Below, piece by piece: positions 2,997 through 60,906 of a DNA stretch of 64,000 nt. Numbering within the stretch: the first letter of the stretch is position 1; every line of letters begins with the position of its first letter. Origin of the DNA: a virus; IMG/VR virus record IMGVR_UViG_2784746744_000001, positions 1 to 64,000 of that record. One strand, written 5' to 3'. The notes under the pieces were generated by a model. That model was not told where the DNA came from. It worked only from the letters and a program-made list of their open reading frames with translations, and made no database searches. A program made the position numbers and the translations under genes.

Positions 2997-3032
2997 GATG
3001 GTCTCCTTCTGGTGGTGGTTGGTCGGTGGTGG

Positions 3033-3200
3033 TTAGATTTTCGCGAGTTCCATCGCGAGGTCCCATTCGGCCAGCTGGAAGCCGATCGCAAACGCGAGAG
3101 CGACCACGACGAGGGCGAACGTGATCGCTTGCGAAATGTCGCGGTGAGTTTCAAGCTGGATTTTCTGGATTGGGGTGATGTGGATGTGACCGCGCTTCAT
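3033..3200 (-). CDS. small membrane protein (about 55 aa)
   Basis: Internal Met of ORF 3033-3524 preceded by GGAGGA. ATGA overlap with the upstream small gene. One predicted TM helix. Confidence 0.35.
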   Translation of the reverse strand: MKRGHIHITPIQKIQLETHRDISQAITFALVVVALAFAIGFQLAEWDLAMELAKI

Positions 3201-3375
3201 GCTGCGGTCCTCCAGTGGGTGGGCTCGTAGTAGACGTACGTCGAGCCGTCGGGGACGAACCACAAATTTCCATTGCGCTTGAGCTTCTGCTCGTTGCGAG
3301 CGCCAGCTGCGTCGTCGATTTTCGTGTCGACAACCAGCCCAACCGGCGGAAGTGCCTCGGTGAGTTTCTTCCACA
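3197..3375 (-). CDS. hypothetical small protein (about 59 aa, coordinates approximate)
   Basis: Minus-strand ORF MWKKLTEALPPVG... Translationally coupled (ATGA) to the flanking small genes and missed by the 60-aa ORF cut-off. Confidence 0.35.
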
Positions 3376-3564
3376 TCAGACGGAGTTCCGCTGGTTTGCG
3401 CGGGCCTTGTCACGGCGCTTGCCGGACGGGCGACCATGGCGCTTAGCCCTGTGGTCAGGCCGGGCCATAGGCTCGGCAGAAGATGCAGCATTGCGGGAAG
3501 GGTAGTAGTCACCTGCCTCGTCATACAGTTCGACGAGGCAAGGTCTTCTGCTTGAAAGTGGCAT
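3376..3564 (-). CDS. hypothetical basic small protein (62 aa)
   Basis: Start is preceded by the phage-typical CACCACCAGAGGAGA leader motif. Lys/Arg-rich C-terminus. Confidence 0.45.
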   Translation of the reverse strand: MPLSSRRPCLVELYDEAGDYYPSRNAASSAEPMARPDHRAKRHGRPSGKRRDKARANQRNSV

Positions 3565-3645
3565 GAGAGCCGTCTCCTCTGGTGGTGTACACCGCATTGG
3601 TGGTGCGGTGAGAGGAGAATGCTTTAATCCAAACGTGGAGTCAAT

Positions 3646-3658
3646 ATCCAAATTGGAT
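3646..3658. promoter_or_regulatory. operator-like palindrome ATCCAAATTGGAT (type A), downstream of repressor 1
   Basis: 11-bp odd palindrome TCCAA-A-TTGGA. Same element is repeated in the divergent promoter region at 4419-4475. Confidence 0.5.
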
Positions 3659-3662
3659 CAAT

Positions 3663-4388
3663 TTAGTATTTTCCTGATAGAACGATTGGATGGACGCTTA
3701 CGACGTCCTCGCGAGCGAATCGTATTTCGCCTTCTGGATTATATTGACGCAGGACCAAGTCGGAACCCGCCCAGCCCACGAACTCCTTCACATAACCGAG
3801 CGGAGGAAGATCCTCTGAGGCTGGCCTTATCTGCACGATGACGTCGTCGCCTCGACGAGATGGCTTGGTGGGATGAACGTACACGGTTTCGCCAGCCTTG
3901 TAGCGAGGCCACATCGACTCGCCGTCAATGTAGACTGCGTAGGCGTTCGGCACGTTTTGCAGTGAGGGTGGGCAGGCGACATAATCGAGAACGTGGCCAT
4001 TGAAGCTATACTCGCCGCCTTCTCCGCCGACGGCCTCGCCCAATACGGGAAGCATCATTTCCAAGCGATTCGTGGGAATGTGCCCCATAATTCGAGCGTC
4101 AGGAGCGCCCGCGCCTGTGGACGTACCGTTGGTTGGAACCCTGCTAGGCACTGCGAAGAATTTTCCGGCAGCGCTCTCCCCACTCGCTTCCTTCATCAGC
4201 TGTCGCATCTCGTCTTCAGCAATGCCTAGGAGGGCAGCCAGTTCACGCCATTTGCGCGGCGACGATGTGTTTCCGCGGAAGATCTCGGAGATGGCTTGAG
4301 GAGTCATTTCCAGCCTGTCTGCGATCTCCACCTGGCTAATATTTAATTCTTTAGCTCGGGCGACGAGCAGGTCAGACAGCTGGGACAC
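3663..4388 (-). CDS. cI/LexA-like phage repressor (HTH_XRE plus S24 peptidase domain)
   Basis: N-terminal HTH (LNISQVEIADRLEMTPQAISEIFRG). C-terminal LexA-like domain with G-E-S-M Ser and K-A-G-E Lys dyad context. Confidence 0.85.
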   Translation of the reverse strand: MSQLSDLLVARAKELNISQVEIADRLEMTPQAISEIFRGNTSSPRKWRELAALLGIAEDEMRQLMKEASGESAAGKFFAVPSRVPTNGTSTGAGAPDARIMGHIPTNRLEMMLPVLGEAVGGEGGEYSFNGHVLDYVACPPSLQNVPNAYAVYIDGESMWPRYKAGETVYVHPTKPSRRGDDVIVQIRPASEDLPPLGYVKEFVGWAGSDLVLRQYNPEGEIRFAREDVVSVHPIVLSGKY

Positions 4389-4418
4389 GTTTTTTTATCT
4401 CCGTTTTTCAACGTCTTA

Positions 4419-4475
4419 CCATTTTGGATATAAAAAAGCAAATCAAGCAATTGACTCCAAATCCAAATTGGATAT
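4419..4475. promoter_or_regulatory. divergent promoter/operator region with one full and two half copies of the TCCAAATTGGA palindrome
   Basis: Full site at 4462-4472. Half-sites TTGGATA at 4424-4430 and TCCAAAT at 4455-4461. Sits immediately upstream of the repressor 1 start. Confidence 0.5.
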
Positions 4476-4779
4476 TGATTGCGCTGTCACCAGATGGCGG
4501 GGGCCTGACGGAGACGAAACAACATGGCGGAAAACACACAATCCTGCACAAGAAGAAGAGCGAAGCTCCACGGTACTGACAGAAGTGGCTTAACGCGGGA
4601 GCGTGGGCCACCAAGAAGAAGCCAACCGGGCATCCCGACCCAAGCGGGATAAGACCCTAAGACGCGGCCAAACAAATTTAGGAGGTTCATTTGATACAGG
4701 AAAATAGCGGCAGAAGAATAGTTGAAAAACAGGGGGGTCGGAGAAGAGCCGACCCGCAGGCCAAGCCACCTTAAAAGCA

Positions 4780-4846: not shown

Positions 4847-5635
4847 TCACTCCAAGCTCACCAGATAGTAGTAGTCGCTCTCACGCTCTTCGATCGTGTA
4901 GGTGATGCCGACGGTGGCGTTTGCATTCGTTAGAACGGAAGCTGAGCATGTCGTCAGCTTGCCTGATTGGGAAACTGTCGAAATGTTAGTGACGTCTTTG
5001 ACGCCAACCTTCAGAAGATTCAGCGGAATGTCTGGGAAGATTGCCTTGACCTGCGCGACACTCAACGACGAGTCGCACGTAGGTGTCGCAAGCCCCAGAT
5101 ATGGCCTCGTGAAGCCTGCGGATGCAAATATCGAGAAAACGACCGAAGCCACCCACGCCAGCATTGTGTATTGCTTCATGCGGAGCCGGCGATTTCGAAT
5201 GAAGATATACAGCGGAGCGAGAAGTAGAGCTCCGAAGAATGGTGTCGCTTCTTTGCGCCGTCCACTTGCCCGCACGGCTTTCTCGTCAAGCGCCGCCAAC
5301 ACTCCGTTTGCCGCTGCGTATGCGAGGAAGATAGCCGGAGTTGTCACTCCGCCATATGATTGCGTAAGTACCGCCTCGATCGCCCAGCCGATTGCCGGTA
5401 CCGTAGCGAGTGTCCAAATCCAGAAACTGTTGATCTCTGATATCGGCAGAGGCGGTGGCGAGCCATCATCTCGCAAGTCATCGACCTCGGCGAACCTGCG
5501 CCAGGTGCTGCCGAGAGATCCGGTCCACACCAGCGTGTCGCTGTTGATGGCGCCGCTTTTGAATTTCGAGATTAATTCGTCGCGAGAGACCGGGCCGAAA
5601 CGCCCGCCATTGTCGCTGTAATGCCAGTCAGTCAT
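4847..5635 (-). CDS. membrane protein with N-terminal GYF_2/DUF4339-like domain
   Basis: 262 aa. N-terminal WHYSDNGGRFGPVSRDEL...DTLVW motif, then multiple TM helices and a C-terminal extracytoplasmic domain. Confidence 0.6.
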   Translation of the reverse strand: MTDWHYSDNGGRFGPVSRDELISKFKSGAINSDTLVWTGSLGSTWRRFAEVDDLRDDGSPPPLPISEINSFWIWTLATVPAIGWAIEAVLTQSYGGVTTPAIFLAYAAANGVLAALDEKAVRASGRRKEATPFFGALLLAPLYIFIRNRRLRMKQYTMLAWVASVVFSIFASAGFTRPYLGLATPTCDSSLSVAQVKAIFPDIPLNLLKVGVKDVTNISTVSQSGKLTTCSASVLTNANATVGITYTIEERESDYYYLVSLE

Positions 5636-7199: not shown

Positions 7200-8399
7200 A
7201 TGGGGAAGTTTGAAAAAGGTCAGTACGTCCGCAGAACCAAGGGCAGTTCGCTGCACACTGCTGCTGGGATCCATGAGGCCGGTTTTGTCGGTCAGGTTTC
7301 TGCAGTCGAGATTTCGACCTGCGGCGCAGAGCTGCTCTTCACGAACGGCCAGCGCGGCATCGCCGACAAGTATGAGCCGTGGGTGCCAAAGGTCGGTGAT
7401 CGGGTGACCACCAATATGACCACACGCGTCAATATCGAGCGGCATTGGAACCATCATTTCCGACGTTCCGAAGGCGATATCATCAATGGTGCACTTGTTG
7501 TGACCAGTGTTTCGGAAAAAAACACCGGCAGCAATATCGGCCTTAGCAACAAGGAAGGCCGCAGCTTCTTCTTCATGCCCGAATCGACACTGCGACCTGC
7601 CGATCCGGCTCCCGCCGCCCTCACCATCGAAGCCGGCAAGTTCTACAAGACGCGCGATGGCCGGAAGGTCGGGCCGATTGTGAAGGCGCAATGGGGCTAC
7701 GGACCAGATTGGCTGTGGTCGGTTGAGCATCCGTTCGTCGCCTCCTGCGGCAAGGCGTGGCGCGCAGATGGCACCTTCTCGACAGTAGCTGGCCGCTCGG
7801 ATGAGGCTGACCTCGTTGCCGAATGGGTCGACGAGCCGGCCAGCAATGACAACGGCGGCATCGCCAGTCTGATTGGCAAGTCCGTCACGGTTCAGATCAC
7901 GAAGCCGAAGTTCGAAGTCGGCGATCGCGTGAATAAAACGGACTGGCAGAGTTACAGCCCGAAGGGATATCTCGTGACACAAATCACGTCGGACAGGCTT
8001 TGGCTGGATCCCGGCAATGGGATGGCGCCGGTCAGCTACAAACTGCCGGATGAGGAATTCTGGTTAGTTACAACGAAGCCTGCCACCACCCCCGCCATCG
8101 TCGCCCTCATCGAAAACGGCCAGCCTAAGCCGTCGTCCACCCCGCACGTCCATGCCGACGAAGCCAAGGCTGGCAAGGAAGCGGCCCGTCTTGCCGGTGT
8201 CTACAAGGGCAAGGAGTTCGGCGTCTTCGTCCTGACCTCGAGTGCCCAGCAGGCCGCGCCGGTCTACAAGCACGAATGGCAGCGCCTGGCTGCCAATGGC
8301 AACAAGATCGGCGCCATCAAGGAACTGCGGGCCGCCAACGACCTGACGCTCAAGGGCGCCAAGGATGCCGTCGAGCACTGGCTCGCAACGGCCGCCTAA
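7200..8399 (+). CDS. hypothetical protein with C-terminal ribosomal L7/L12-CTD-like segment. Contains ASNDN
   Basis: 400 aa. C-terminal KIGAIKELRAANDLTLKGAKDAVE resembles the L7/L12 C-terminal domain motif. Confidence 0.5.
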   Translation: MGKFEKGQYVRRTKGSSLHTAAGIHEAGFVGQVSAVEISTCGAELLFTNGQRGIADKYEPWVPKVGDRVTTNMTTRVNIERHWNHHFRRSEGDIINGALVVTSVSEKNTGSNIGLSNKEGRSFFFMPESTLRPADPAPAALTIEAGKFYKTRDGRKVGPIVKAQWGYGPDWLWSVEHPFVASCGKAWRADGTFSTVAGRSDEADLVAEWVDEPASNDNGGIASLIGKSVTVQITKPKFEVGDRVNKTDWQSYSPKGYLVTQITSDRLWLDPGNGMAPVSYKLPDEEFWLVTTKPATTPAIVALIENGQPKPSSTPHVHADEAKAGKEAARLAGVYKGKEFGVFVLTSSAQQAAPVYKHEWQRLAANGNKIGAIKELRAANDLTLKGAKDAVEHWLATAA

Positions 8400-8463
8400 C
8401 CACTCCACCACCATCACCACAGCACGGCCGTGCGGCTAACCACCGCACGGCGAGAGGAGACCT

Positions 8464-8667
8464 ATGTCCAGACATCGCTCGACGACCAATCCCTACGCGA
8501 CCAGCCTGACCCGAACCGGCAAGCTGGATATGACCAACCGCAAGCCGTACCGTACGGCTGCCCAGCAGGCCGACGCCCGCTCGACGGCTGTGAAGGTGAA
8601 CGGCACTTTCGTGTCGAACGCACCGGTCAGCTACCACCGCTCGCCGAAAAAGCAGGTGGCCGCATGA
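8464..8667 (+). CDS. hypothetical small basic protein
   Basis: 67 aa. Strong leader GAGAGGAGACCT before the ATG. Confidence 0.5.
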   Translation: MSRHRSTTNPYATSLTRTGKLDMTNRKPYRTAAQQADARSTAVKVNGTFVSNAPVSYHRSPKKQVAA

Positions 8668-9276: not shown

Positions 9277-10128
9277 ATGGGTCGCATTTTTGCAGGCATC
9301 CTTGGCTTTTTCGTATTCATCGCCGCGTCGAGCGTTGTGTTCGGCAGCTGGTACACGATCGACGAGGGCGAACGCGGTGTCCTAACCCGCAACGGCGCAG
9401 TCGTAGGAACGGCCACACCTGGCCTCGGATTCAAGATGCCGATCATGGACGGTGTCGAGAAGATCACTGTGCGAACGGAGATCATCCAATTCGACAAGCT
9501 CGGCGCCTACAGCCGTGACCAGCAGTCGGCCGAGATGCGGGTGTCGGTGAACTACCGAATCCTGCCGGACGCCGTGAAGGACGTTTACTCGAACTACGGC
9601 TCTGCTGACGGTATCGCTGCCCGCCTTATCCAGCCGCGCATCTTCGAAACCCTGAAGACAGTATTTGGCCAATTCACCGCTGTGTCTGCCATTCAGGAGC
9701 GCGAGAAACTGAACACAATGGTGCGTGACGCCATCGCCAAGTCCGTCGGCGGCCCGATTGTCATCGAAGGTGTCCAGATCGAAAACATCGATTTCTCCGA
9801 TGCCTACGAGGCCAGCATCGAGCAGCGCATGCTTGCCGAGGTCGAGGTGCAGAAGCTCCGCCAGAACGCCGAGCGCGAGAAAGTGCAGGGCGAAATCACG
9901 GTGACGCAGGCCAACGCAAAGGCCGACGCTGTTCGAGCTGCTGCATCAGCTGAGGCTGAAGCCATCCGGATCCGAGGTGAAGCTGAAGCATCCGCCATCA
10001 AGTCTCGCGGCGCGGCCCTCCGTGACAATCCCGGCCTTGTCGACCTGACGGCAGTCGAAAAGTGGAAGGGCGACCTGCCATCCACGATGGTACCGGGCTC
10101 CGCTCTGCCGTTCGTCGGCATCAAGTAA
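9277..10128 (+). CDS. SPFH/band-7 (stomatin/prohibitin/HflK-C-like) membrane protein
   Basis: 283 aa. N-terminal TM helix, SPFH core, C-terminal coiled coil rich in A/E/R. Confidence 0.8.
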   Translation: MGRIFAGILGFFVFIAASSVVFGSWYTIDEGERGVLTRNGAVVGTATPGLGFKMPIMDGVEKITVRTEIIQFDKLGAYSRDQQSAEMRVSVNYRILPDAVKDVYSNYGSADGIAARLIQPRIFETLKTVFGQFTAVSAIQEREKLNTMVRDAIAKSVGGPIVIEGVQIENIDFSDAYEASIEQRMLAEVEVQKLRQNAEREKVQGEITVTQANAKADAVRAAASAEAEAIRIRGEAEASAIKSRGAALRDNPGLVDLTAVEKWKGDLPSTMVPGSALPFVGIK

Positions 10129-10185
10129 CCACCACTGCGGCTGGCCACCACCAGCCGCAACCATTCCCACCACAGAGGAGAAACC

Positions 10186-10959
10186 ATGGCTATTTCCCTT
10201 GGTAGCTTGAACAGCACCAGAAACAATAAGCCTCCGATCGGCGTCATCTATGGCGTCCACGGCGTCGGCAAGACCGCATTGGCGGCCGAGTTTCCCGATC
10301 CGTACTACCTCCCCACCATGGGCGAGGAGCCGCCGGACGACATCGATATGCCGTCGCCGGGCACCGCTGAGAGCCTTGAAGACATCCTCGATGTCATTGG
10401 CTGGCTTCTCACCGAGGAGCACGACCGAAAGACCTTCATCCTCGACAGCGTTGATGGCGCCGAGAGCCTGGTCTGGAAAGCGACTTGCGCGCGCCTTGGC
10501 CTCAACAGCATCGAGGATGCGGGTTTCGGTAAGGGTTATGTCGAGGCGGACACCGAGTGGCGCGAGCTTCTCGCCGGTCTGCAGGCGCTGCGAGACGCAG
10601 GCATCGCCGTCGTGCTCATTGCTCACACTGAGATCACGCGGTTCGACAGCCCGACCAGCGATCCGTTCTCGCGCTACGGCATCAAACTCCACAAGCGCGC
10701 TTCGGCGCTCGTGCAGGAATGCGCCCAGTTCGTCGGCTTCATCAACTACCGCCATACGCTGAAAGAGAAGGAGGTCGGCTTCAACAAGAAGGTCTCGCAC
10801 GCCGAAGGCAGTGGCGAGCGTCAGATCCACCTCGAGGAGCGTCCCGGCTTTCTCGCCAAGTCGCGGTACGGCACGCCGGCAGCCATCACTTTCAAGAAGG
10901 GCAAGGGCTGGGAGGAGCTGGCCAAATACATGCCTGAGCCGCTCGGGAAGGCCGCCTGA
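10186..10959 (+). CDS. Sak4-like AAA_24 RecA-fold ATPase (phage ssDNA annealing/recombination)
   Basis: Walker A GVHGVGKT. Typical Sak4 length of 257 aa. Followed by DUF669. Confidence 0.75.
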   Translation: MAISLGSLNSTRNNKPPIGVIYGVHGVGKTALAAEFPDPYYLPTMGEEPPDDIDMPSPGTAESLEDILDVIGWLLTEEHDRKTFILDSVDGAESLVWKATCARLGLNSIEDAGFGKGYVEADTEWRELLAGLQALRDAGIAVVLIAHTEITRFDSPTSDPFSRYGIKLHKRASALVQECAQFVGFINYRHTLKEKEVGFNKKVSHAEGSGERQIHLEERPGFLAKSRYGTPAAITFKKGKGWEELAKYMPEPLGKAA

Positions 10960-11123
10960 TGTTCAGCGGTGGCAACTGGTTCGCCTGGTTCCCGGTACTT
11001 GTCCGCACATCTCGCGGCAAGCGTTGGGCCTGGCTTGAGAACGTCTGGCGCGAACGCGTCGTCAGCCAACACGGCAGCGGTCCATACCGCTACTACGCCT
11101 AACCACACAGAGGAGATATTGCG

Positions 11124-11339
11124 ATGGCAATTTTCAAGTCGGATTCGCTCGACGGCATCCTGAACACCTTCAACAAAACGATCACGCGCCTCGATGCCTT
11201 CTCGGCTAAGCGCCAGCAGGATGCCGACGCAGCGGCCACCCTCATCAAGCAGAAGCAGGACGAACAGAAGGCAGCTCTCGACGACGTCACCAAGTCGGCC
11301 GCCGTTCGCTCGAAGATCAGTGACCTGATCGCCGCCTAA
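11124..11339 (+). CDS. hypothetical protein
   Basis: 71 aa. Leader ACACAGAGGAGA. Confidence 0.45.
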   Translation: MAIFKSDSLDGILNTFNKTITRLDAFSAKRQQDADAAATLIKQKQDEQKAALDDVTKSAAVRSKISDLIAA

Positions 11340-11375
11340 CCACCGCCTACCAGACACCACACAAGGAGACCACGC

Positions 11376-11963
11376 ATGGCCAAGATTGGCGTAAGAGTTG
11401 AAGCCACCGAAGAGAACACGCAGCAGCGCGATTTCTCGAACCTTCCAAACGGCGACTATCAGCTGGAAATCAGCGCCTCCGAGATCAAGGAGAAGAACGA
11501 GAACACCCGCGACCACAGCATCAACCTCAGCGTGACGATTGACGTCCTCGCGCCGGAGGAGCTCAAAGGCCGCAAGATTTTCTCGAACTACAACCTGCAG
11601 CATCCGAATTCGCAGGTGCAGGAAATCGGACAGCGTCAGTTTGCCTGCCTCCTTCGCTCGCTCGGCATGCAGGACGCGCCGGAGGATTCCGACGAGTTGC
11701 ACTTCATCTCGTTCTTCGCCCGTATCGGCATGGGTAAGGACAGCAAGGAAAAGAACGCCGACGGCTCGCCGAAGTACGCCGCGCGCAACGAGTTGAAGAA
11801 ATACTTCTATCCGGATGAAGGCAACTTGCCGGAGCCGAAGGTGGACGCCGGTCCCGTCGCGGCAAACGACAATCGTCGCGCGCCTGCCGCATCCAACGAC
11901 AATCGTCAGCCGCCGCAGGCCGACGCCAAGCCGGCCGCCCGTCGTCCTTGGGGCAACAAGTAA
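11376..11963 (+). CDS. DUF669-family phage protein (SSB-like partner of Sak4). C-terminal tail has two ANDN motifs
   Basis: N-terminal MAKIGVRVEATEENTQ...NGDYQLEI is typical of DUF669. Confidence 0.6.
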   Translation: MAKIGVRVEATEENTQQRDFSNLPNGDYQLEISASEIKEKNENTRDHSINLSVTIDVLAPEELKGRKIFSNYNLQHPNSQVQEIGQRQFACLLRSLGMQDAPEDSDELHFISFFARIGMGKDSKEKNADGSPKYAARNELKKYFYPDEGNLPEPKVDAGPVAANDNRRAPAASNDNRQPPQADAKPAARRPWGNK

Positions 11964-14373: not shown

Positions 14374-14931
14374 ATGACCCCGGCGAACGATAACCGCCCT
14401 ACACCAAAAAGGCCGGCCGGCTTCGACGCCGCGCTCGAATCCTACCTGCCTTCGCTCCGGAAGCAGGCAAACTATATGGCCGGCACACGTGAGGACGGCG
14501 AAGTCCTCCTGCATGAGACCGTCCTGCGGATGCTCCGCTGCGCCGATAACTGCCGCGTGGAGACGTTCAAAACCTGGGCGCAGTACAAGCTGCTCAACAC
14601 CCACAGTGGCATGAGGGCGGCAGCCCGCAGCCAGTGCCGGTTCGCGCCGACGACGTCACTTACTCCTGCCAACGATAACGACCCGGACGAATTCGCTCGC
14701 ACGATCTCCCAGATGCGGACGGCTGCGACGCAGGAAGCGGATGCTGACTTTGCGGATGCGCTCCGGGTTCTCGGCACCATCAAGGACGGTGACTTGCTTC
14801 TCCGTCGCGCGATGGGTTTTGAGCTCAAGGTCATCGGCGACGAGCTCGGCGTGAGCAAGGAGCGCGTCCGCCAGCGTGAAGAGGCCGCAAGAACGGCGTT
14901 CTGCGCAGCGATGCAGCGGAGTGTCGCCTGA
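14374..14931 (+). CDS. ECF-type sigma-70 family sigma factor (regions 2 and 4). Two ANDN motifs
   Basis: Region 2-like LLHETVLRMLR. Region 4 HTH LKVIGDELGVSKERVRQ. Confidence 0.65.
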   Translation: MTPANDNRPTPKRPAGFDAALESYLPSLRKQANYMAGTREDGEVLLHETVLRMLRCADNCRVETFKTWAQYKLLNTHSGMRAAARSQCRFAPTTSLTPANDNDPDEFARTISQMRTAATQEADADFADALRVLGTIKDGDLLLRRAMGFELKVIGDELGVSKERVRQREEAARTAFCAAMQRSVA

Positions 14932-16721
14932 TGGGTCTTCGATACTATCAGGAAGATGCTGTTGCAGCACTGTTCGATTATTGGGGCGAGGAGGCGGGCA
15001 ATCCGTTGATCGATCTCGCGACCGGCACCGGCAAATCCATGGTCATGGCCACGGTTATCCGCCAGCTTGTCGAAGGCTGGCCGGACATGCGCATCATGGT
15101 CGTGACGCACGTAGCGGAATTGATCGAACAGAACTTCCTCGAACTGCTCAGCGTCTGGAATCAGGCGCCGGCAGGTATCTTCTCGGCCGGCCTCAATCGC
15201 CGTGATGCTCGCAGCCAGATCATCTTCGCCGGCATTCAGACCGTCTGGAACAAGGCCGACCTGATCTGTGGCGCGCGCGTCGTCAATGGTGAGAAGGTTT
15301 ATGACCGACCTATCGACGTCGTTCTTGTCGATGAGTGCCATCTGATTCCGAAAAACAGCGACACTCAATACGGCCAATTCTTCCGCGTCGTGCGCGAGGT
15401 GAATCCGGATCTCAAGATAGTCGGGCTTACCGCGACGCCGTTTCGCCTAGATAGCGGTCGCCTCGATGAGGGCGAGGACCGGATGTTCGACCGCGTGGTC
15501 TACACCTATGGTATCGCCGACGGGGTACGCGACGGCTATCTCGCCCCGCTGTCGTCGAAGCACACCGCCACGGAACTGAGCATGAAGGGCGTGGGCCGTC
15601 TGGGCGCGGACTATAAGCAGTCGGCCATGCAGGCGGCCGTGGATAAGCCGGACGTCACGCAGGCGGCCGTTGACGAGATCGTAGCGAAGGGCGCGGACAA
15701 ACGTTCCTGGCTTTGCTTCTGCTCTGGCGTCGAGCATGCTGAGCACGTTCGCGACGAGATCCGGTCACGCGGAATCAGTTGCGAAATGATCACCGGCGAC
15801 ACGCCCAAGGAAGAGCGCCGGCGCATCATCGAAGACTTCAAGGCCTTCCGGATCCGCGCGTTGACGAACAATTCGGTTTTGACGACCGGCTTCAATCACA
15901 AGGGCGTCGATCTCATCGCGGCTTTGCGGCCGACGCTGTCCGCATCCCTTTACCTGCAGATGATGGGGCGAGGGACGCGCGTGCTCTATGCGCCGGGTAT
16001 GTCGCTGGAAACGCCGGACGAGCGCCGCGCTGCAATTGCCGCTGGTCCGAAGCCATCCTGCTTGGTGCTCGACTTCGCCGGTCTCGTAGACAAGCACGGA
16101 CCAGTGGACATGGTGCAGCCGAAGGAGCCGGGCAGCGGTGATGGCGAAGCGCCGATGAAGATTTGCCCGGTCGATCGTCAGGACAAGAACGACAACTATG
16201 GGTGCGGTGAGAAGCTGCATGCATCGGCGCGGGTCTGCTCATGCTGCGATTATGAGTTCGACATCGACGATAGCCCAAAGATCGCCGGCACAGCTGCCGA
16301 CGTTCCGATCATGACGATGGCTGAGCCGGAATCGCGCAACGTCACCAGTCGCACGTTCCGATTCCATGAAGGGAAGGGCGATAAGCCACCGTCAGTGAAG
16401 GTTACCTTCATGTCTGGCATGACGGCCATCAATGAGTGGCTATGCCCCCAGCATTCCGGTTTTGCAAAGACGAAGGCGGATCGTTTCTGGCTGGCGCACG
16501 GTGGCAACCGGCCTTTCCCACGCGAAGTGATGGAGTGGCTAGAAAGGCAGAGCGAGCTGAAGGAAACAGTGGAGATCACCGTCCAGCCGCGCGGAAAATA
16601 CTGGGATGTGGTCGGGCATGTCGTCGGAGATTATGCAGCGGCAAACGACAACGATGAGCCGCCGGCTAACGATAATCGGCCGGCTTGGACGGACGAATTG
16701 GAGGACGGGATTCCGTTTTGA
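14931..16721 (+). CDS. SF2 DEAD/DEAH-box DNA helicase (res-subunit-like) with C-terminal zinc ribbon. C-terminal ANDN x2
   Basis: Motif I TGTGKS. Motif II VLVDECH. Motif III LTATP. Cys cluster near the C-terminus. Confidence 0.8.
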   Translation: MGLRYYQEDAVAALFDYWGEEAGNPLIDLATGTGKSMVMATVIRQLVEGWPDMRIMVVTHVAELIEQNFLELLSVWNQAPAGIFSAGLNRRDARSQIIFAGIQTVWNKADLICGARVVNGEKVYDRPIDVVLVDECHLIPKNSDTQYGQFFRVVREVNPDLKIVGLTATPFRLDSGRLDEGEDRMFDRVVYTYGIADGVRDGYLAPLSSKHTATELSMKGVGRLGADYKQSAMQAAVDKPDVTQAAVDEIVAKGADKRSWLCFCSGVEHAEHVRDEIRSRGISCEMITGDTPKEERRRIIEDFKAFRIRALTNNSVLTTGFNHKGVDLIAALRPTLSASLYLQMMGRGTRVLYAPGMSLETPDERRAAIAAGPKPSCLVLDFAGLVDKHGPVDMVQPKEPGSGDGEAPMKICPVDRQDKNDNYGCGEKLHASARVCSCCDYEFDIDDSPKIAGTAADVPIMTMAEPESRNVTSRTFRFHEGKGDKPPSVKVTFMSGMTAINEWLCPQHSGFAKTKADRFWLAHGGNRPFPREVMEWLERQSELKETVEITVQPRGKYWDVVGHVVGDYAAANDNDEPPANDNRPAWTDELEDGIPF

Positions 16722-16735
16722 GAGGTTACCAGCGA

Positions 16736-17401
16736 CTAACTCTTCGTTTTTATCCCTTTCTCAAGCTTGTGCTCCAGGCCTCGCATGATCGATGTGCTCA
16801 TGGCTGAAAAAGCTCCCACGGGAGAAAGCTCACGCTTTTTCAGATTCCGGTAAATCGCTTTGCGCGTAGCCATGGGTATCGTCTTGTCGGCTAGTTGTTG
16901 GAAAATGAGTAGTATTTTTTCAGCGTGCTCTGTCCTCATCTCTATTAAATCCGGTCTGTTAAGACCGATAATTTCGATCGTGGACAAGCCTGGAATGGAG
17001 CCGCAATGCCCCGCGACAGGCCCAGCAAAGACAATGTGGTCATCGGGGTCGGTGATGTAGGGATCAATTATTTGGGCGGCGGTAGGATCATCGTTCGATT
17101 TGTTTTGATTACATAATTCGCACGCCAGCGTCAGGTTGTCCCATTTGAAAGTCTTCTTAGGATCTAGTGACTTCGGATAGATATGCTCGACATCACCATG
17201 ATGCACATGTTTGAGTTTAGCTTCGCAATAGGCGCACTTGCCATTTGTCTCAAGGGTTAGGACGCGCTTTATGTCGACGTGTCGATATTTGCTCTTGAGA
17301 CCATCGTTTGCGTTCTTACCTGCAGCAAGGAGATCTGCCAGCCAGGCAGCGCCATTCGTTACAAGCACAGTTGGCTCGGTTAACTTAGAGAGCTTTATCA
17401 T
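16736..17401 (-). CDS. HNH endonuclease, PtuB-like (Septu-like defence partner)
   Basis: CAYCE...HHGDVEHIYP...N...CELCN HNH motif. 4-nt overlap with the upstream ATPase. AT-richer than the surrounding genes. Confidence 0.7.
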   Translation of the reverse strand: MIKLSKLTEPTVLVTNGAAWLADLLAAGKNANDGLKSKYRHVDIKRVLTLETNGKCAYCEAKLKHVHHGDVEHIYPKSLDPKKTFKWDNLTLACELCNQNKSNDDPTAAQIIDPYITDPDDHIVFAGPVAGHCGSIPGLSTIEIIGLNRPDLIEMRTEHAEKILLIFQQLADKTIPMATRKAIYRNLKKRELSPVGAFSAMSTSIMRGLEHKLEKGIKTKS

Positions 17402-18648
17402 CTGTTTGCAGCCATTCTCGCGAGCGTTTCTGCGAAGTAATCATCCAGCCCAAGCTGTGTCAGTTGCGAGCGCATTTGCTCAATATTGCCCTCAGTCAAG
17501 TTGTTGATATCGAACGCCTTTGATACCTTATAGAGCTCCTCTTCTGCCCAGATCGGCATCGTTACCGGCACTCCAAGTACCTCGCGCAAGACGTCGCCTG
17601 CAGAACCAGACTTCGAATCTTTGGTCAACGCTACGGAATAAACCGATCCGCCTGAGGGTAAAATGTTGTTCGCGCTCTTATATCTCAAGGCGTATATCGA
17701 CGAATCGCGAACAGACGAAACGACAAAAGGACTGTGGGTGGCGACGATGAATTGCCCACTTGGAAACGCTTGCAGCAGATTTCCCATAAGTGTGCGTTGC
17801 ATAGAAGGGTGTAGGTGATTTTCTGGCTCGTCGATTAAGCAAACAAAATTCGTTCTTTTCCGTGAATATAAGAAAACCTGCCAGGCCAAGTCCAATATGG
17901 AGTGAAGTCCGCCCGATGCACCGTCTATAGGGAAGTCACCTGTGTCAGTAACAATGACTACATCAGGAACTCTAATGCTAAGTGTCCTGAAACCTAGGCT
18001 CTGAGGAAGAAGCTTGCCCAGAACATCCTTGAACGCTTCGTAGTCGGCCTCGATCTGAACGTTACGAGGAATGTTGGGGTTTCCTACCCCAAATGTCGCC
18101 ATTGATATCAGCGCCTCTTTCATCCGAAAGGCCGGCGAGGAGGCCGTGTAACTATTCGCGATCTTGTGCTTTATCTCCTCATCGTAGAGCGTGTACGCCT
18201 GCTCTGCAGACATAGGATTGCTCCTTATGACATCCACGGCTTGGTATGTTGGGATAAACCTGTGAGACGCGATGTACAGGCCGTCCAGAACTTGCGACCC
18301 TCGAGTATGATGCAAGTTATATGCCCCAGAGTCAGTGCCCAGAGCGTGTAATCCTGATTTTGTGCCGTCTGAGAACGTCACCATCCCAATGCGGTTTTGC
18401 TCGTCCATAGCGCGCTGGCCTTGCCTTTTGTCGCGATCGTTCGCGACGTATCGCACGGTACCATCGTCGTCGATGTGCGGCGTCGCCACCAGCAATTGAT
18501 TGAAGCCAAACATCATGCCCAAGGTCTTCAGGATGGTGCTTTTACCCGAACCATTTGCGCCGGCGATTACGGTGAGGCGAGGATGGAAATCAATGTTGAT
18601 GGAGGCGTATTGCCGCCAATTCTCAATCTCAAGGTTATTAAAAATCAC
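17398..18648 (-). CDS. ABC/OLD-type AAA_15/21 ATPase, PtuA-like (Septu-like defence)
   Basis: N-terminal Walker A GANGSGKST. Walker B FVCLIDEPENHLHP. 416 aa. Operon with the HNH gene. Confidence 0.7.
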   Translation of the reverse strand: MIFNNLEIENWRQYASINIDFHPRLTVIAGANGSGKSTILKTLGMMFGFNQLLVATPHIDDDGTVRYVANDRDKRQGQRAMDEQNRIGMVTFSDGTKSGLHALGTDSGAYNLHHTRGSQVLDGLYIASHRFIPTYQAVDVIRSNPMSAEQAYTLYDEEIKHKIANSYTASSPAFRMKEALISMATFGVGNPNIPRNVQIEADYEAFKDVLGKLLPQSLGFRTLSIRVPDVVIVTDTGDFPIDGASGGLHSILDLAWQVFLYSRKRTNFVCLIDEPENHLHPSMQRTLMGNLLQAFPSGQFIVATHSPFVVSSVRDSSIYALRYKSANNILPSGGSVYSVALTKDSKSGSAGDVLREVLGVPVTMPIWAEEELYKVSKAFDINNLTEGNIEQMRSQLTQLGLDDYFAETLARMAANR

Positions 18649-18781
18649 TTTTACACTCCGCGTTTAGAAGATGCTTATACCACGAGGAGATGCGTAGCTA
18701 GATCAAGTATTTGACGGATTGCTCGCTACGTCGCGACCGAAACCAGATAACACGAGTATCGACTTTGAAATGCGCAATAAG

Positions 18782-18797
18782 TTGACAAATTTGTAAA
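18782..18797. promoter_or_regulatory. copy of the 16-mer TTGACAAATTTGTAAA (type B operator/promoter) upstream of the HNH-AP2 gene
   Basis: Exact repeat of 6511-6526. Confidence 0.5.
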
Positions 18798-18859
18798 AAT
18801 AAGCATGATGCAATAACCATGCGCCGACCAAGCGCGACACCACGCCACAAGAGGAGACG

Positions 18860-19411
18860 ATGATGAAGGATGCCCATAGCCTTCAGTACCTGAAAGAATG
18901 CTTGAGATACAATCCAGAGACAGGCGCGCTCCACTGGCGAGAAGATCGTCCCAAACATCACTTCGACTTATCAAGAACACGCAATCGGTGGATTGGGCGT
19001 TTTGGTGGAAAGCAGATCACCTGCGTCGCGGAAAGCGGCTACATCGTGTTCAACTTGCGTGGCGTTGTCTACCTCGCTCATCGCGTAATCTTTGCGATGG
19101 AGAACAACATCGAGATGGCAGAACTGCCTGAGCAGATCGACCACAAAGACACGGTTCGCACCAACAACCGCCGAAGCAATTTGCGAGCGGCAGACGTTGT
19201 TAAAAACGCGCATAACATGTCCGTTCGTCGTGATAGCGCCTCCGGATACAAGGGCGTCACATGGGGCAAGCAGCGTCAAAAATGGCGAGCCACGATCCAG
19301 ATCGATGGAAAACAGAAGCATCTCGGATTCTATGAGGATCCGGCAGAAGCTCATGCCGCCTACATCAAGGCAGCAAATGAGAATTTCGGTCAGTTCGCGA
19401 GGGCAGCATGA
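18860..19411 (+). CDS. HNH homing endonuclease with AP2 DNA-binding domain
   Basis: HNH_3 motif YLAHRV...IDHKD...N. AP2 domain SGYKGVTWGKQRQKWRATIQ...FYEDPAEAHAAY. Confidence 0.7.
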   Translation: MMKDAHSLQYLKECLRYNPETGALHWREDRPKHHFDLSRTRNRWIGRFGGKQITCVAESGYIVFNLRGVVYLAHRVIFAMENNIEMAELPEQIDHKDTVRTNNRRSNLRAADVVKNAHNMSVRRDSASGYKGVTWGKQRQKWRATIQIDGKQKHLGFYEDPAEAHAAYIKAANENFGQFARAA

Positions 19412-20139
19412 TTAGTGAGTTCAATCCCGCTGAAATCGCTGGTGCCGGCCACAACCAAGATCCATTCGAGGCCCTCAAGCGGGAACTCGACGATCTCTAC
19501 GATGAGGCGAAAAACTTTTGTGACGGCGAGCCGATCGGATCGGAAGATATGGCGGAGGCCATTACCGAGTTGCACGACCGCATCCACGAATGCGGCACGC
19601 GTGCTGAGGCTCTCCGCGTTGCAGAGAAGAAGCCTCTGGACGAAAAGGTAGCGGCGATCCAGGCGAAATTCCATCCGCTGATCGGCAACACCAAGACAGG
19701 TAAGGGCAAGGTCGTGCTCGGCAAGGATGCTTGCCAATCCCTCCTCACGCCGTGGCGCAAGAGGGTTGCCGACGACAAGGCGGCAGAGGCTGCTGCGAAG
19801 GCCGCCGAGGCGGCCGCTGCCACAAAGGCCGCTGAAGAGGCGATACGATCTTCGTCCGGCAATCTCGGCGCCCGTGAATATGCCGAAGAACTGTTGGCCG
19901 ACGCGAAAAAGATGGAGCGCGGCGCCAAGCGTGCGGACAAGGCGGCAACCACTGGGACCGGCCTTCGTACTGTGTGGAACGTGAACATCTCAGACGAGAC
20001 GAAGGCGCTCGACTGGGCGTTTGAACACGCGCCGGGCGAGTTCATGGCGATGGCGCTTTCGCTGGCCGAGGAACAGGTTCGCAAGGGTGTGCGCTCGATC
20101 GAGGGGTTCTCGATCGTCGAAGACAAGGTAGCTCGTTAG
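19408..20139 (+). CDS. hypothetical protein with Ala/Glu/Lys-rich coiled-coil centre
   Basis: 243 aa, ATGA-coupled. Confidence 0.5.
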   Translation: MISEFNPAEIAGAGHNQDPFEALKRELDDLYDEAKNFCDGEPIGSEDMAEAITELHDRIHECGTRAEALRVAEKKPLDEKVAAIQAKFHPLIGNTKTGKGKVVLGKDACQSLLTPWRKRVADDKAAEAAAKAAEAAAATKAAEEAIRSSSGNLGAREYAEELLADAKKMERGAKRADKAATTGTGLRTVWNVNISDETKALDWAFEHAPGEFMAMALSLAEEQVRKGVRSIEGFSIVEDKVAR

Positions 20140-20357
20140 TGCGTGGGTGGTGGCGCGAGGTCGAACTCGTCCTTGAGCGGACGCGCCACCTCTTCGACCT
20201 GTCGAAGTAGTGAGATGCTGTTCTGATGATGGCCGATCGCAATGCCCCATCCGCCGCTACGCAGCGCACAAACGGTTAGCTCCGGGCAATCCCAGTCGGC
20301 TGCATAGCGGTCGACGATCATGCGCTGCAATTCTTCGGCGGTTCTCGTTGGCTTTTG
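20136..20357 (-). CDS. hypothetical small protein on the opposite strand
   Basis: Start MQKPT preceded by GGGAGG. Confidence 0.4.
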   Translation of the reverse strand, partial: QKPTRTAEELQRMIVDRYAADWDCPELTVCALRSGGWGIAIGHHQNSISLLRQVEEVARPLKDEFDLAPPPTH

Positions 20358-20436
20358 CATCGTGGCCTCCCGACCCAGCAATACGACACCACCCAACGCT
20401 CAACCAACGCGCTGGTTTCACCACAGAGGAGAGAAT

Positions 20437-21762
20437 ATGACGAGCACGACGATGCACGACGGAAGAGTCGTGCTGCATCAGGCCGACTGCCGCGACGCCT
20501 TGCGCAGTTTGGGCGACAACTCGATCGACAGTGTGGTCACAGACCCGCCGTATGCGTTGGTGTCGATCCAGAAACGCTTCGGAAAACCGGGCGCGGCGCC
20601 GGCCAAGGACGTTTATGGTCGCGGCGCGGCTGGGTTCATGGGCAAGCAGTGGGACACAGGTGAAGTCGCGTTTAGCGATGAGTTCTGGGTGGAAGTGTTG
20701 CGCGTTCTTAAACCGGGCGGCCATGTGGCAGCCTTTGGGGGCACACGTACCTATCATCGGATGGCCGTAGCAATCGAAGATGCGGGCTTCGAGATACGTG
20801 ACCAGCTTGGCTGGGTTTATGGATCGGGTTTCCCAAAATCACATAATCAGACCGGTGATTGGGAGGGTTGGGGCACTGCGCTCAAGCCAGCATGGGAACC
20901 AATCTGCCTCGCGCGAAAGCCTCTGGCCGGTACCGTGGCGGCAAACCTTGAGGAGTGGGGCGTCGGTGCGATCAATGTTGATAAGTGCCGCGTTGCGACG
21001 GAAGAAGCGTTGAGCGCCGGTGCCGGAAAGTTGTGGTCGTACTACCGTGAAGGCGAGGCAAGTGCAGACCGCAGATACAATGACGTGGGTGGCACTAGCT
21101 TCTCATTGAAGCCTGGTACTAGAGGCGGTGATCCTGCCGGCCGATGGCCAGCAAACATCCTGCACGACGGCAGCGACGAGGTACGCTCTGCTTTCCCAGA
21201 TGCGAAGGGTCAGCAGGGAGACCTGAACGGTCAGTCGAAAGACCGCAAGAGCAAAGGTATCTTTGGCGATATGCCTGCCGCTCGGCAGGCGTTGGCTCGC
21301 GTGGAGGCCGACACCTCAGCCGCGCGGTTCTTCTACTGCGCAAAGGCAAGTCGGGCCGATCGGGACGCCGGCCTTGAGCACCTGCCGAAGAAAACAGGCG
21401 GCATGGTTTCAAACACCTCGGGCCAACACATCACCCGACGTGATGCCGAATATAAGCCGGAGCCTCGAGCAAATACACATCCGACCGTCAAACCGATCAC
21501 CCTTATGCAGTGGCTCTGCCGCCTCATCACGCCGCCCAATGGTGTAGTTCTCGACCCTTTCATGGGCTCCGGATCGACGGGTAAAGCGGCTGTCCTTGAA
21601 GGTTTTCGGTTCGTGGGATGCGAGCGCGAGGAAGAATACATGCCGATTGCGTCATCTCGTATCGCGTGGGCAATCGGCGCAGCGGACAAATCGGAGCAAG
21701 CCCCAGTGATACGCGTCGCCAATGACAATCGGGAAGGTGATCTGTTCGGGGTGGCAGCATGA
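20437..21762 (+). CDS. DNA N6-adenine/N4-cytosine methyltransferase (beta-class, DPPY motif first). C-terminal ANDN-x-EGDLF tail
   Basis: DPPY at the N-terminus. AdoMet motif FMGSGSTG near the C-terminus. CcrM-like architecture. Confidence 0.85.
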   Translation: MTSTTMHDGRVVLHQADCRDALRSLGDNSIDSVVTDPPYALVSIQKRFGKPGAAPAKDVYGRGAAGFMGKQWDTGEVAFSDEFWVEVLRVLKPGGHVAAFGGTRTYHRMAVAIEDAGFEIRDQLGWVYGSGFPKSHNQTGDWEGWGTALKPAWEPICLARKPLAGTVAANLEEWGVGAINVDKCRVATEEALSAGAGKLWSYYREGEASADRRYNDVGGTSFSLKPGTRGGDPAGRWPANILHDGSDEVRSAFPDAKGQQGDLNGQSKDRKSKGIFGDMPAARQALARVEADTSAARFFYCAKASRADRDAGLEHLPKKTGGMVSNTSGQHITRRDAEYKPEPRANTHPTVKPITLMQWLCRLITPPNGVVLDPFMGSGSTGKAAVLEGFRFVGCEREEEYMPIASSRIAWAIGAADKSEQAPVIRVANDNREGDLFGVAA

Positions 21763-22384: not shown

Positions 22385-24433
22385 ATGACGCTACATTTCG
22401 CGCCGGATCCCGCACCCCCGCTCATCATCGACAGCTTCGCCGGCGGCGGCGGAGCATCAACCGGTATCGAGCTCGCGCTCGGTCGATCGCCGGACATTGC
22501 CGTGAACCACAATCCGGCGGCACTGGCGCTTCACGCTGCCAACCACCCCGATACGCTCCACCTGTCGGAGAACGTCTACAAGGTGGATCCGCTCGACTAC
22601 CTGCGCCGCAGACACGTTGGCCTCGCTTGGTTCTCGCCTGACTGCAAGCACTTCTCGAAGGCAAAGGGCGGCAAGCCGGTGGAGCGCAATATCCGCGACC
22701 TGTGCTGGATCATTCCCGGCTGGATCGAACGCATCCAGAAGAGCGGCGGCAAGGTCGACGTCGTCATCATGGAAAACGTCGAGGAGTTCAAGGATTACGG
22801 CCCACTGATGCAGACCGAGCGCGGCCTCATGCCTGACCCGGCACGCAAGGGCGAGACGTTCAAGGACTGGTGCAAGAAGCTACGCAAACTCGGTGGAAAG
22901 ATTGAGTTCCGCGAGCTCCGCGCCTGCGACTACGGCGCGCCGACGATCCGAAAGCGGCTCTTCGTCATCGTCCGCTTCGACGGCAAGCCAATCGTGTGGC
23001 CGGAGCCTACCCATGGCAAGCCAACGGATGCAGATGTCATCGCCGGCCGCAAGCTGGCATGGCGGACGGCCGCCGAGTGCATCGACTGGAGCCTGCCTTG
23101 CCCGTCGATCTTTGATACGTCGGAGCAGGTGATTGCTCGCCATAGTCTTCGCGCCGTACGTCCGCTGGCTGACGCCACCATGTCGCGTGTTGCACGCGGG
23201 ATGAAGCGGTACGTGCTGGATGCGGAGCGGCCGTTTTTGGTGTCGGTCGGCTGCAACACTGGCGAAGAGCGACGCGCATCCGACGGCTGGAAGCAACGCC
23301 ACGACGTAGCTGGCACGACCGCGCCACACCTGTCGGCTTTTTATGGTGAGGGTAAGGGCGGCAATGATCGCGCAGCGCCTGCGGACGAGCCTGTCCGTGT
23401 AATCTCGACGGCCAACCGGCATGCGCTCATCGCGCCCAACCTTATGAGCCTCAAGGGTAGCGCCCGGCGGGACAGCGCGGCGAACGATCCGCATCCAACC
23501 GTTCTGGCTGGCGGTGGTCACTCTGCAGTCATCGCTCCCGTTCTCAGCTATGCACAGCAGGGCGGCGCCAATCGGTCCGTAGAGGATCCGCACCACACCA
23601 TCTGCGCCAGCCTGAAGGATCAGAACGCGGTCATCATCCCGACGCTTGTTGGTTGCGGTGGCAGGGCCGGACAGTCACGCCCTCGCGGCTGTGACGAGCC
23701 GACCGCGACTATCACAGCGAAAGCGGACGGCTGCGTATCTATGGCGTTCATCGCGCAGCACAACAACGACAACCGTCGCATCGGCGGCGTGAACCCGGGC
23801 CGTGACGCCGGAGAACCCATGTCAACCGTCACAGCCACCGGTGCCCAGCAGGGCGTTGTCTCGGCGTTCGTTTCGCGTCAGTTCGGCGCTTCGATTGGAC
23901 ATGGCATTGAGGAGCCGTCGGCGACAATCACGGCAGGCGTCAACAAGTCGGCTCTCGTGGCGCCGTACCTGCAGGCCTACTATGGCACCGGCGACGGAGG
24001 TGAGGAGAACCAGCCAGCGCGGACCATCACCACGAAGGACCGTCACGGCCACGTCGAAGCCGCCCTGCAGGTTCCGCCCTTCACAGCGGAGCAGGAGGAT
24101 CGCGCCCGCGAAGTGGCAAACTTCATGCGCGAGCACGGCTTCTGGGACGATCGCGAGTTCGTCACGTTGTCGATCGGTGCCGACACGTTCGTCATCGTCG
24201 ATATCGGCATGCGCATGCTGACGCCCCGCGAGCTCTACAACGCGCAGGGATTCCCGTCGGACTATCGCATCGACGAGGATGCCGACGGCAACGCGTTCCC
24301 GAAGTCGGTTCAGGTCAGCTGCGTCGGCAACTCGGTCTCGCCGCCGGTGGCGCGTGCGCTGGTAGCGGCCAACTGCGAACACTTGGCTGCGGCGAATGAC
24401 AATGTCAGCGATGTGTCTCTTCGCGCCGCTTGA
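22385..24433 (+). CDS. DNA cytosine-5 methyltransferase with expanded variable region of about 7 tandem TRD-like repeats (multispecific-type architecture). C-terminal AANDN
   Basis: Motif I FAGGGG. PC motif SPDCKHFS. ENV. Motif VIII RKRLF. Motif IX LTPREL..QGFP. Motif X GNSVSP. 682 aa. Confidence 0.85.
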   Translation: MTLHFAPDPAPPLIIDSFAGGGGASTGIELALGRSPDIAVNHNPAALALHAANHPDTLHLSENVYKVDPLDYLRRRHVGLAWFSPDCKHFSKAKGGKPVERNIRDLCWIIPGWIERIQKSGGKVDVVIMENVEEFKDYGPLMQTERGLMPDPARKGETFKDWCKKLRKLGGKIEFRELRACDYGAPTIRKRLFVIVRFDGKPIVWPEPTHGKPTDADVIAGRKLAWRTAAECIDWSLPCPSIFDTSEQVIARHSLRAVRPLADATMSRVARGMKRYVLDAERPFLVSVGCNTGEERRASDGWKQRHDVAGTTAPHLSAFYGEGKGGNDRAAPADEPVRVISTANRHALIAPNLMSLKGSARRDSAANDPHPTVLAGGGHSAVIAPVLSYAQQGGANRSVEDPHHTICASLKDQNAVIIPTLVGCGGRAGQSRPRGCDEPTATITAKADGCVSMAFIAQHNNDNRRIGGVNPGRDAGEPMSTVTATGAQQGVVSAFVSRQFGASIGHGIEEPSATITAGVNKSALVAPYLQAYYGTGDGGEENQPARTITTKDRHGHVEAALQVPPFTAEQEDRAREVANFMREHGFWDDREFVTLSIGADTFVIVDIGMRMLTPRELYNAQGFPSDYRIDEDADGNAFPKSVQVSCVGNSVSPPVARALVAANCEHLAAANDNVSDVSLRAA

Positions 24434-31550: not shown

Positions 31551-31627
31551 CGCAGAGTAGAGCAGCCAGGTAGCTTGTCAGGTTCATACCCTGAAGGTCG
31601 CGGGTTCAAATCCCGCCTCTGCAACCA
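31551..31627 (+). tRNA. tRNA-Met (CAT), initiator-like (C1-A72 mismatch)
   Basis: Cloverleaf folded by hand. Anticodon loop TTCATAC. T-arm GCGGGTTCAAATCCCGC. 3-prime CCA. High similarity to bacterial tRNA-fMet. Confidence 0.75.
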
Positions 31628-31635
31628 ACTCCCAT

Positions 31636-31711
31636 GCGCGTCTGGCCGAGTGGTTCAGGCAACGGTCTCCAAAACCGTCTAGGTCGGTTCGATTCCGGCG
31701 GCGCTGCGCCA
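31636..31711 (+). tRNA. tRNA-like sequence, possibly tRNA-Trp (CCA anticodon), with imperfect acceptor stem (possible pseudo-tRNA or att remnant)
   Basis: D-arm GCCGAGTGGTTCAGGC. Anticodon arm ACGGT-CTCCAAA-ACCGT. T-arm GTCGGTTCGATTCCGGC. Acceptor pairing only 5 of 7 and no clean CCA register. Confidence 0.35.
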
Positions 31712-60817: not shown

Positions 60818-60906
60818 GTGGATCTCGTATGTTGTTGGCAGCGCCACTTTATGGAGTGCATTCCAACTCACAAGTGTGTTTTCTCGTTTCACCCAATAAA
60901 GGTGTG

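Follow-up and report, generated by a model that had tools for sequence, protein, structure and literature searches.

A probable stand-alone Septu operon, ptuA–ptuB, carried as accessory cargo by a temperate prophage of Neorhizobium

We analyzed a 64,000-nucleotide (nt) stretch of viral DNA (positions 1 to 64,000 of IMG/VR record IMGVR_UViG_2784746744_000001; hereafter the window), focusing on two adjacent minus-strand genes that encode an ABC-type ATPase and an HNH nuclease. We conclude, with a probability of about 85%, that this locus is a stand-alone (type I) Septu operon, ptuA–ptuB, horizontally acquired as accessory cargo by a temperate, myovirus-like prophage of Neorhizobium sp. JUb45. 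An earlier note made from the sequence alone (the original prediction) had described a Septu-like module of two open reading frames (ORFs), an ATPase of 416 amino acids (aa) and an HNH protein of 221 aa with a 4-nt overlap. Both ORFs were found exactly at the coordinates it gave and, as it also said, are opposed to the plus-strand helicase and HNH-AP2 genes (Table 1). The ATGA junction between them, read directly from the sequence, constitutes translational coupling of ptuA and ptuB, and ptuA itself is preceded by a ribosome-binding site, GGAG, at 18656–18659, 7 nt upstream of its GTG codon.

The family assignment is carried by profile searches. PADLOC returned PtuA and PtuB as the best matches of the two proteins, each over its full length, in agreement with the proposed Septu identity. 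The ATPase matched the PtuA profile PDLC00290 with an E-value of 2.6e-151 (residues 1–414 against profile positions 1–410 of 414), and the HNH protein matched the PtuB profile PDLC00337 with an E-value of 1e-68 (residues 1–210 against positions 1–212 of 216). Given E-values of 1e-151 and 1e-68, a match by chance is ruled out. Pfam domains were in keeping with this assignment: AAA_15, AAA_21, and SMC_N were detected in the ATPase, and HNH, HNH_4, and HNH_5 in the nuclease. Among solved structures in the Protein Data Bank (PDB), the closest sequence relative of the ATPase was E. coli Septu PtuA (8EE4, E 1e-14), with an alignment restricted to the N-terminal P-loop and the C-terminal lobe. The top PDB sequence matches of PtuB were the PtuB chains of type I-A retrons.

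Furthermore, the structure of PtuA was predicted with AlphaFold2 from a 60-homologue alignment, which gave a model with a mean pLDDT (predicted local distance difference test) of 86.4 and a pTM (predicted template-modelling score) of 0.86. A Foldseek search of the PDB with this model showed that the top 50 matches were all PtuA chains, with E-values down to 1e-16; they belonged to stand-alone E. coli Septu (8EEA, 8EE4, and 8SUX) and to the retron Ec78 and Ec83 complexes. Template-modelling (TM) scores against the solved PtuA structures were 0.45–0.54, at 15–20% sequence identity. The predicted fold thus places the ATPase in the PtuA family, yet in a divergent subfamily.

Both proteins keep their full set of catalytic residues. 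Residue conservation was read from alignments of 88 PtuA and 70 PtuB homologues, together with the 60-sequence PtuA set, and the window proteins retain every residue that is invariant across these families. In PtuA, the invariant positions comprise G30-x-N-G-x-G-K36 (the Walker A motif GANGSGKST, with K36), S128-H-R130, and the signature S245-G-G247. The Walker B motif LIDEPENHLHP contributes D273-E274, followed by E-N-H-L-H-P-S-M-Q-R; the H-loop is T304-H-S-P, with H305, and a C-terminal helical extension spans about residues 343–414. In PtuB, two zinc-ligand pairs, C56xxC59 and C94xxC97, accompany the invariant columns H65, E72-H73, N89, N98, and K101, of which E72-H73, N89, and N98 are catalytic. 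The motifs quoted in the original prediction (GANGSGKST, LIDEPENHLHP, CAYC, and CELCN) are all present; its "HH", however, refers to H67-H68, which do not form the conserved catalytic pair. The position next to the PtuA signature, that of the signature "Q", is occupied by Ile, Val, or Leu in all 88 members and by Leu248 in the window. In stand-alone E. coli Septu, PtuA reportedly also has Leu in place of the Gln of retron PtuA and shows no ATPase turnover (PMC12819146). Defence by Septu Ec-B88 requires intact Walker A and B motifs and the H-N-H residues (PMC13096335).

The pairing and gene order are conserved beyond this phage. PtuA relatives at 80 genome loci and on 17 viral contigs were examined, and a PtuB homologue followed PtuA on the same strand in all 97 loci, which upheld the prediction of a Septu-like pairing and order. 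An overlap of 4 nt was the commonest ptuA/ptuB junction (37 of 80 homologues), followed by one of 8 nt (18 of 80). In the window, no third conserved gene goes with the pair. The HNH-AP2 gene that adjoins it there was present at none of the 97 loci elsewhere. There is no reverse transcriptase (RT) gene beside the operon, and an Rfam scan, which found only two tRNAs, gave no match in the island. Since neither an RT nor a retron RNA accompanies the pair, we assign it to stand-alone, type I Septu.

The same cassette was found in non-phage contexts across Proteobacteria, and in 10 of 10 other hosts examined ptuAB was poorer in guanine and cytosine (GC) than its own flanks. The window PtuA is 100% identical to a Neorhizobium sp. 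JUb45 protein that is publicly labelled only "AAA family ATPase". The next relative, at 72% identity, lies on a contig of JGI metagenome 3300048929 (L128). There, ptuAB (2307–4213, plus strand) shows the same 4-nt overlap and sits in an island of about 10 kb, whose other genes include those for an integrase, an AlpA regulator, and a PIN-domain protein. As this relative occupies a different island, the cassette moves between unrelated mobile elements. Against deposited phages, megablast of positions 16000–20000 gave zero matches, and tblastn of PtuA gave weak partial matches only.

Several lines of evidence mark ptuAB as foreign to the phage backbone. The GC content of ptuAB is 0.48–0.51 versus 0.60–0.63 in the flanking regions. 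The 2.7-kb island of which it forms part (16722–19407) has a GC content of 0.50, compared with a window mean of 0.589, and is the lowest of all windows of the same length (z = −3.8). GC at third codon positions is 0.54–0.60 in the island versus 0.69–0.78 in backbone genes. The AT-richer segment described in the original prediction is thus confirmed by base composition, with one correction: the HNH-AP2 gene belongs inside the low-GC patch and not to its flank. The product of that gene matches Pfam HNH_3 at 31.5 bits, above the cut-off, and AP2 at 30.7 bits, slightly below it; the gene is a slot-mate of ptuAB and lies outside Septu.

To place the insertion, 29 IMG/VR relatives with a helicase at 45–90% identity were collected, and their fetched flanks were searched for PtuA and PtuB. 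Neither was found in any of the 29 within these flanks. The closest relatives (L001, L002, and L004) match the window at the nucleotide level up to exactly 16721, the helicase stop codon, and again from about 19483, within the exonuclease gene. Its absence from the relatives, the break in homology at the helicase stop, and the minimum of GC in the island lead us to regard ptuAB as accessory, moron-like cargo: a horizontally mobile cassette that landed in a recombination-prone slot. A search for flanking direct or inverted repeats gave only short two-copy families of chance quality.

The content of this slot differs in nearly every relative. In L001, whose helicase is 90% identical to that of the window, it holds an RtcB RNA ligase (9814–11031, plus strand; Pfam RtcB E 8e-59). 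HNH or HNH-AP2 endonucleases fill it in L012, L016, L018, L005, and L003, the last three carrying HNH-AP2 homologues without ptuAB. In L026 it contains a low-GC pair on the minus strand (9701–11019), a 140-aa ORF and a 299-aa nuclease of the endonuclease/exonuclease/phosphatase (EEP) family; in L028, a 666-aa plus-strand ORF (9742–11742) with a GC content of 0.47 and no Pfam or PADLOC match; and in L005, two small minus-strand ORFs (7651–8477). The slot ORFs of L026, L028, and L005 are possible candidates for uncharacterised defence or anti-defence genes. A PADLOC scan of the relatives' slot ORFs and of the other unannotated window ORFs detected no further known defence system, giving only generic HNH or protease-domain similarity.

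The promoter of ptuAB presumably lies in the 211-bp divergent region upstream of ptuA. A sigma-70 scan of 18649–18859 gave no minus-strand promoter, with counts not above those of shuffled sequences, and a scan of this kind may not suit alphaproteobacterial promoters. Similarly, no terminator-like hairpin was found 3' of ptuB, the counts again not exceeding shuffles, and the 14-nt gap at the convergent stops leaves no room for a terminator. The moron proposed in the original prediction therefore stands as to the insertion, absent from the slot in 29 relatives, and the atypical GC; its own promoter and terminator gained no support from scans that performed no better than shuffles. That ptuAB is antisense to all lytic genes around it speaks for expression apart from the lytic programme.

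These observations suggest a further idea, which we consider unlikely on present evidence. With ptuAB in the window, RtcB in a sister phage, and uncharacterised low-GC genes in others, the slot after the helicase could be a homing-endonuclease-associated point of exchange for defence and counter-defence genes. In addition, as ptuAB lies antisense without a terminator, lytic read-through could silence Septu upon induction, so that transcriptional interference would give the prophage a self-immunity switch. Since tRNA is the target of some Septu systems, RtcB of L001 might be taken for a direct counter-Septu factor. However, the ends left by HNH cleavage are 3'-OH and 5'-phosphate, a combination that RtcB does not join, and such a direct role is therefore doubtful.

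How the operon might act is suggested by its studied relatives. In stand-alone E. coli Septu, PtuA and PtuB assemble at 6:2 into a complex whose nuclease is inhibited by ATP binding and which nicks plasmid DNA in vitro, as reported by Li et al. 2024 and cited in both PMC12640716 and PMC12819146. The helical C-terminal domain of PtuB docks on paired PtuA C-terminal extensions (PMC12819146), and in the same paper a phage tail fibre is cited as a trigger of E. coli Septu. PtuAB homologues differ in substrate specificity (PMC12640716); the reported substrates, depending on the homologue, are tRNA-Tyr's variable loop in vivo and supercoiled or single-stranded DNA in vitro (PMC12640716, PMC12819146, PMC13096335).

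By analogy, PtuA of the window would use its ABC-ATPase heads to oligomerize and its helical C-terminal extensions to clamp PtuB. In the uninfected lysogen, nucleotide-bound PtuA would hold the HNH nuclease inactive. An incoming phage would release the auto-inhibited PtuA–PtuB complex, and activated PtuB would then cleave nucleic acid, either tRNA-Tyr or DNA, arresting the infected cell or the phage in a manner resembling abortive infection. The orientation of the operon, opposite to the lytic genes, makes expression from a promoter of its own in lysogeny probable, and the operon would thereby guard the lysogen against other phages.

Four points weigh against this reading. The function of the locus, and of its subfamily, is carried over from E. 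coli and retron PtuAB. At 15–20% identity and TM-scores of 0.45–0.54 to studied PtuA, substrate, trigger, and oligomeric state may all differ; indeed, with identity this low, the substrate and trigger of the Neorhizobium pair cannot be inferred. No promoter or terminator was identified by the scans above, so expression in the lysogen is assumed. Finally, the reading offers no account of how the induced prophage avoids triggering its own Septu.

A first alternative is that ptuAB is mainly an addiction or stabilisation module, similar to a toxin–antitoxin pair, that penalises loss of the prophage. PtuAB of Retron-Eco7 is toxic when expressed without its RT–msDNA antitoxin (PMC12640716), and the closest relative of the window pair, L128, resides in the integrase/AlpA island beside the PIN-domain gene. 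However, stand-alone Septu has no separate labile antitoxin, E. coli Septu is non-toxic before infection and protects in an abortive-infection-like manner (PMC13096335), and the Septu family is defined by its anti-phage phenotype. We therefore judge an addiction role very unlikely.

We give the same low weight to a second alternative, in which the nuclease serves the lytic programme of the prophage, by degrading host nucleic acid or excluding co-infecting phages, and does not defend the lysogen. The position of ptuAB within the early/replication module, near the helicase, exonuclease, and methyltransferase genes, would suit such a role, and with no terminator between ptuAB and the lytic operon its expression could follow lytic transcription. 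Against this, ptuAB is antisense to every adjacent lytic gene, the 29 sister phages replicate without it, and the cassette also occurs outside phages across Proteobacteria.

Still less probable is membership of a different ABC-ATPase/nuclease system, namely the effector module of a type I-A retron (type II Septu), PARIS, Gabija/OLD, or MADS. Weaker PADLOC matches of the pair to ATPase_I-A (2e-32), AriA (2e-26), mad3 (3e-19), and HNH_I-A (3e-18) would fit such systems, as would PDB sequence matches to retron PtuA/PtuB, AriA, and GajA. The PtuA and PtuB profiles fit far better and over full length, and the non-Septu matches of the ATPase fall at least 100 orders of magnitude below PtuA. Moreover, scores for the NCBIfam equivalogs of retron-Ec78 are far under their cut-offs (107 versus 500 for PtuA, 53 versus 150 for PtuB). 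A retron effector module was thus rejected, as there is no RT or msr/msd, only the 211-bp spacer lies upstream of ptuA, and the equivalogs remain under cut-off. PARIS and Gabija were also rejected, since the partner is HNH and no Toprim or DUF4435 match was found among the pair.

A packaging or homing ATPase/HNH pair was rejected as well, the phage having its own Nu1-like small and large terminases and the PtuAB profiles being overwhelming. The least probable alternative, a decayed or non-functional relic, might be suggested by the fact that a 100%-identity copy was seen in one genome only, with the next relative at 72%, and is contradicted by two intact, full-length ORFs that keep all invariant residues, complete motifs, the coupling overlap, and the ribosome-binding site.

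The window is a temperate, myovirus-like prophage integrated in a member of the Rhizobiaceae, Neorhizobium sp. JUb45; integration follows from the 100% identity of its PtuA to the protein on a 1.35-Mb Neorhizobium contig. The integrase and CI-type repressor genes also agree with the prophage carriage put forward in the original prediction. Prophage genes were assigned by PHROG and Pfam scans, which additionally identified a sliding clamp, a Cas4-type exonuclease, a sigma factor, and a primase/polymerase, as well as structural genes for the portal, head protease/capsid, sheath, tape measure, and tail fibre. Judged by the helicase, the nearest named phages are Rhizobium phage RHph_TM3_3_14B (74%), Sinorhizobium phages, and the temperate phage 16-3; in RHph_TM3_3_14B, only small hypothetical genes follow the helicase.

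Table 1. Coordinates of the Septu operon, its cargo slot, and other prophage features in the window.
Feature	Position	Strand	Description
ptuA	17398..18648	−	416-aa ABC-type (AAA_15/AAA_21) ATPase; GTG start
ptuB	16736..17401	−	221-aa HNH (beta-beta-alpha-metal) nuclease; ATG start
ATGA overlap	17398..17401	−	4 nt; ptuA stop TGA over ptuB start ATG
Spacer	16722..16735		14 nt between the convergent stops of the helicase gene and ptuB; left insertion boundary
Divergent intergenic region	18649..18859		211 bp, ptuA to HNH-AP2 gene; contains ptuA ribosome-binding site
Low-GC variable slot (cargo island)	16722..19407		ptuB, ptuA, and HNH-AP2 gene, between helicase and exonuclease genes
HNH_3 + AP2 gene	18860..19411	+	Homing-endonuclease-like; slot-mate of ptuAB
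Helicase	14931–16721	+	Superfamily 2 (SF2); Pfam ResIII/Helicase_C
Exonuclease	19408–20139		Flank of cargo slot
DNA methyltransferases	20320–21762 and 22385–24433	+	Two large genes
Tyrosine integrase	1–1113	−	
CI-type repressor	3663–4388	−	
tRNA-Met(CAT) and tRNA-Trp(CCA)	31551–31707	+	Directly upstream of small terminase gene
Small and large terminase	32612–35219		Small subunit Nu1-like

Several other genes deserve mention. The methyltransferases downstream of the island probably provide anti-restriction self-methylation, which would put Septu defence and counter-defence genes within 6 kb of one another. The phage tRNAs include no tRNA-Tyr. The interval between integrase and repressor is a classic site of lysogenic-conversion or defence genes, and here it contains a 476-aa ORF (1294–2724, minus strand) with no match in Pfam, PHROGs, or PADLOC. 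Close to its right end, at 62660–63367 (plus strand), the window carries a trypsin-like serine peptidase that stands alone (Trypsin_2 E 3.5e-21); PADLOC matched it in part to protease domains from RT-Protease_XI (5e-12), LmuA, and HamA. It may be a gene of the phage, of the host, or of a defence system. Other, unusual accessory genes encode a GYF_2-domain protein (4847–5635, minus strand), beside a low-GC patch at about 4000–4750, an SPFH/Band-7 protein (9277–10128, plus strand), and a PEBP-family protein (60446–60910, minus strand).

Septu counts among the commonest systems of surveyed bacterial genomes, and its enrichment in myovirus genomes has been noted (bioRxiv 10.1101/2024.10.26.620412); within the pan-defensome of Pseudomonas syringae it is the most abundant system (PMC13182921). 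A type I Septu on a prophage is thus an already known kind of system, and the finding is sound but ordinary. It adds one more temperate phage with a bacterial immune system, in the plant-associated Rhizobiaceae, a family whose phage defence has received little study, and it corrects the generic public label "AAA family ATPase" to Septu PtuA. The locus itself opens no new question; it is mildly interesting for the divergence of its subfamily, for a slot of changing cargo beside a homing-endonuclease-like gene, and for its terminator-less antisense placement. As the subfamily is distant from the dissected E. coli systems, it could show whether the choice of Septu substrate, tRNA-Tyr or DNA, is conserved.

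Compared with known systems, the window operon resembles PARIS (AriA/AriB), Gabija (GajA), and P2 Old in that an OLD/ABC-type ATPase head governs a nuclease, often on prophages or satellites. In those systems, however, the nuclease is Toprim or DUF4435, and the window ATPase matches AriA at 2e-26 versus 2.6e-151 for PtuA. Type I-A retrons (Ec78/Eco7 and Ec83/Eco4; type II Septu) have a homologous PtuA/PtuB pair whose catalytic motifs are the same, as is the logic of a PtuA C-terminal extension and a PtuB C-terminal domain, whereas the window pair lacks both the reverse transcriptase and msr/msd. Retron PtuA is about 550 aa long, with reported extra elements that bind RT and msDNA (PMC12819146), compared with 416 aa in the window.

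E. coli Septu (8EE4, 8EE7, 8EEA, and 8SUX) and Ec-B88 share with the window the ptuA-then-ptuB operon, the ABC ATPase with a C-terminal extension, the HNH nuclease, and the absence of an RT. As in E. coli Septu, a hydrophobic residue replaces the signature Gln, and the predicted fold matches the solved PtuA chains. The window system differs from it in the length of PtuA (416 versus 465 aa), in a sequence identity of 15–20% with a TM-score of about 0.5, and in its carriage by a rhizobial prophage. A further likeness is to the PDLC00290/PDLC00337 subfamily, represented for example in Phyllobacterium trifolii, Mesorhizobium sp. ES1-4, and Agrobacterium tumefaciens, whose members share length, motifs, and the coupled operon at 44–52% identity. 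These homologues are sited in chromosomal islands or other mobile elements, whereas the operon described here is borne on this phage backbone.

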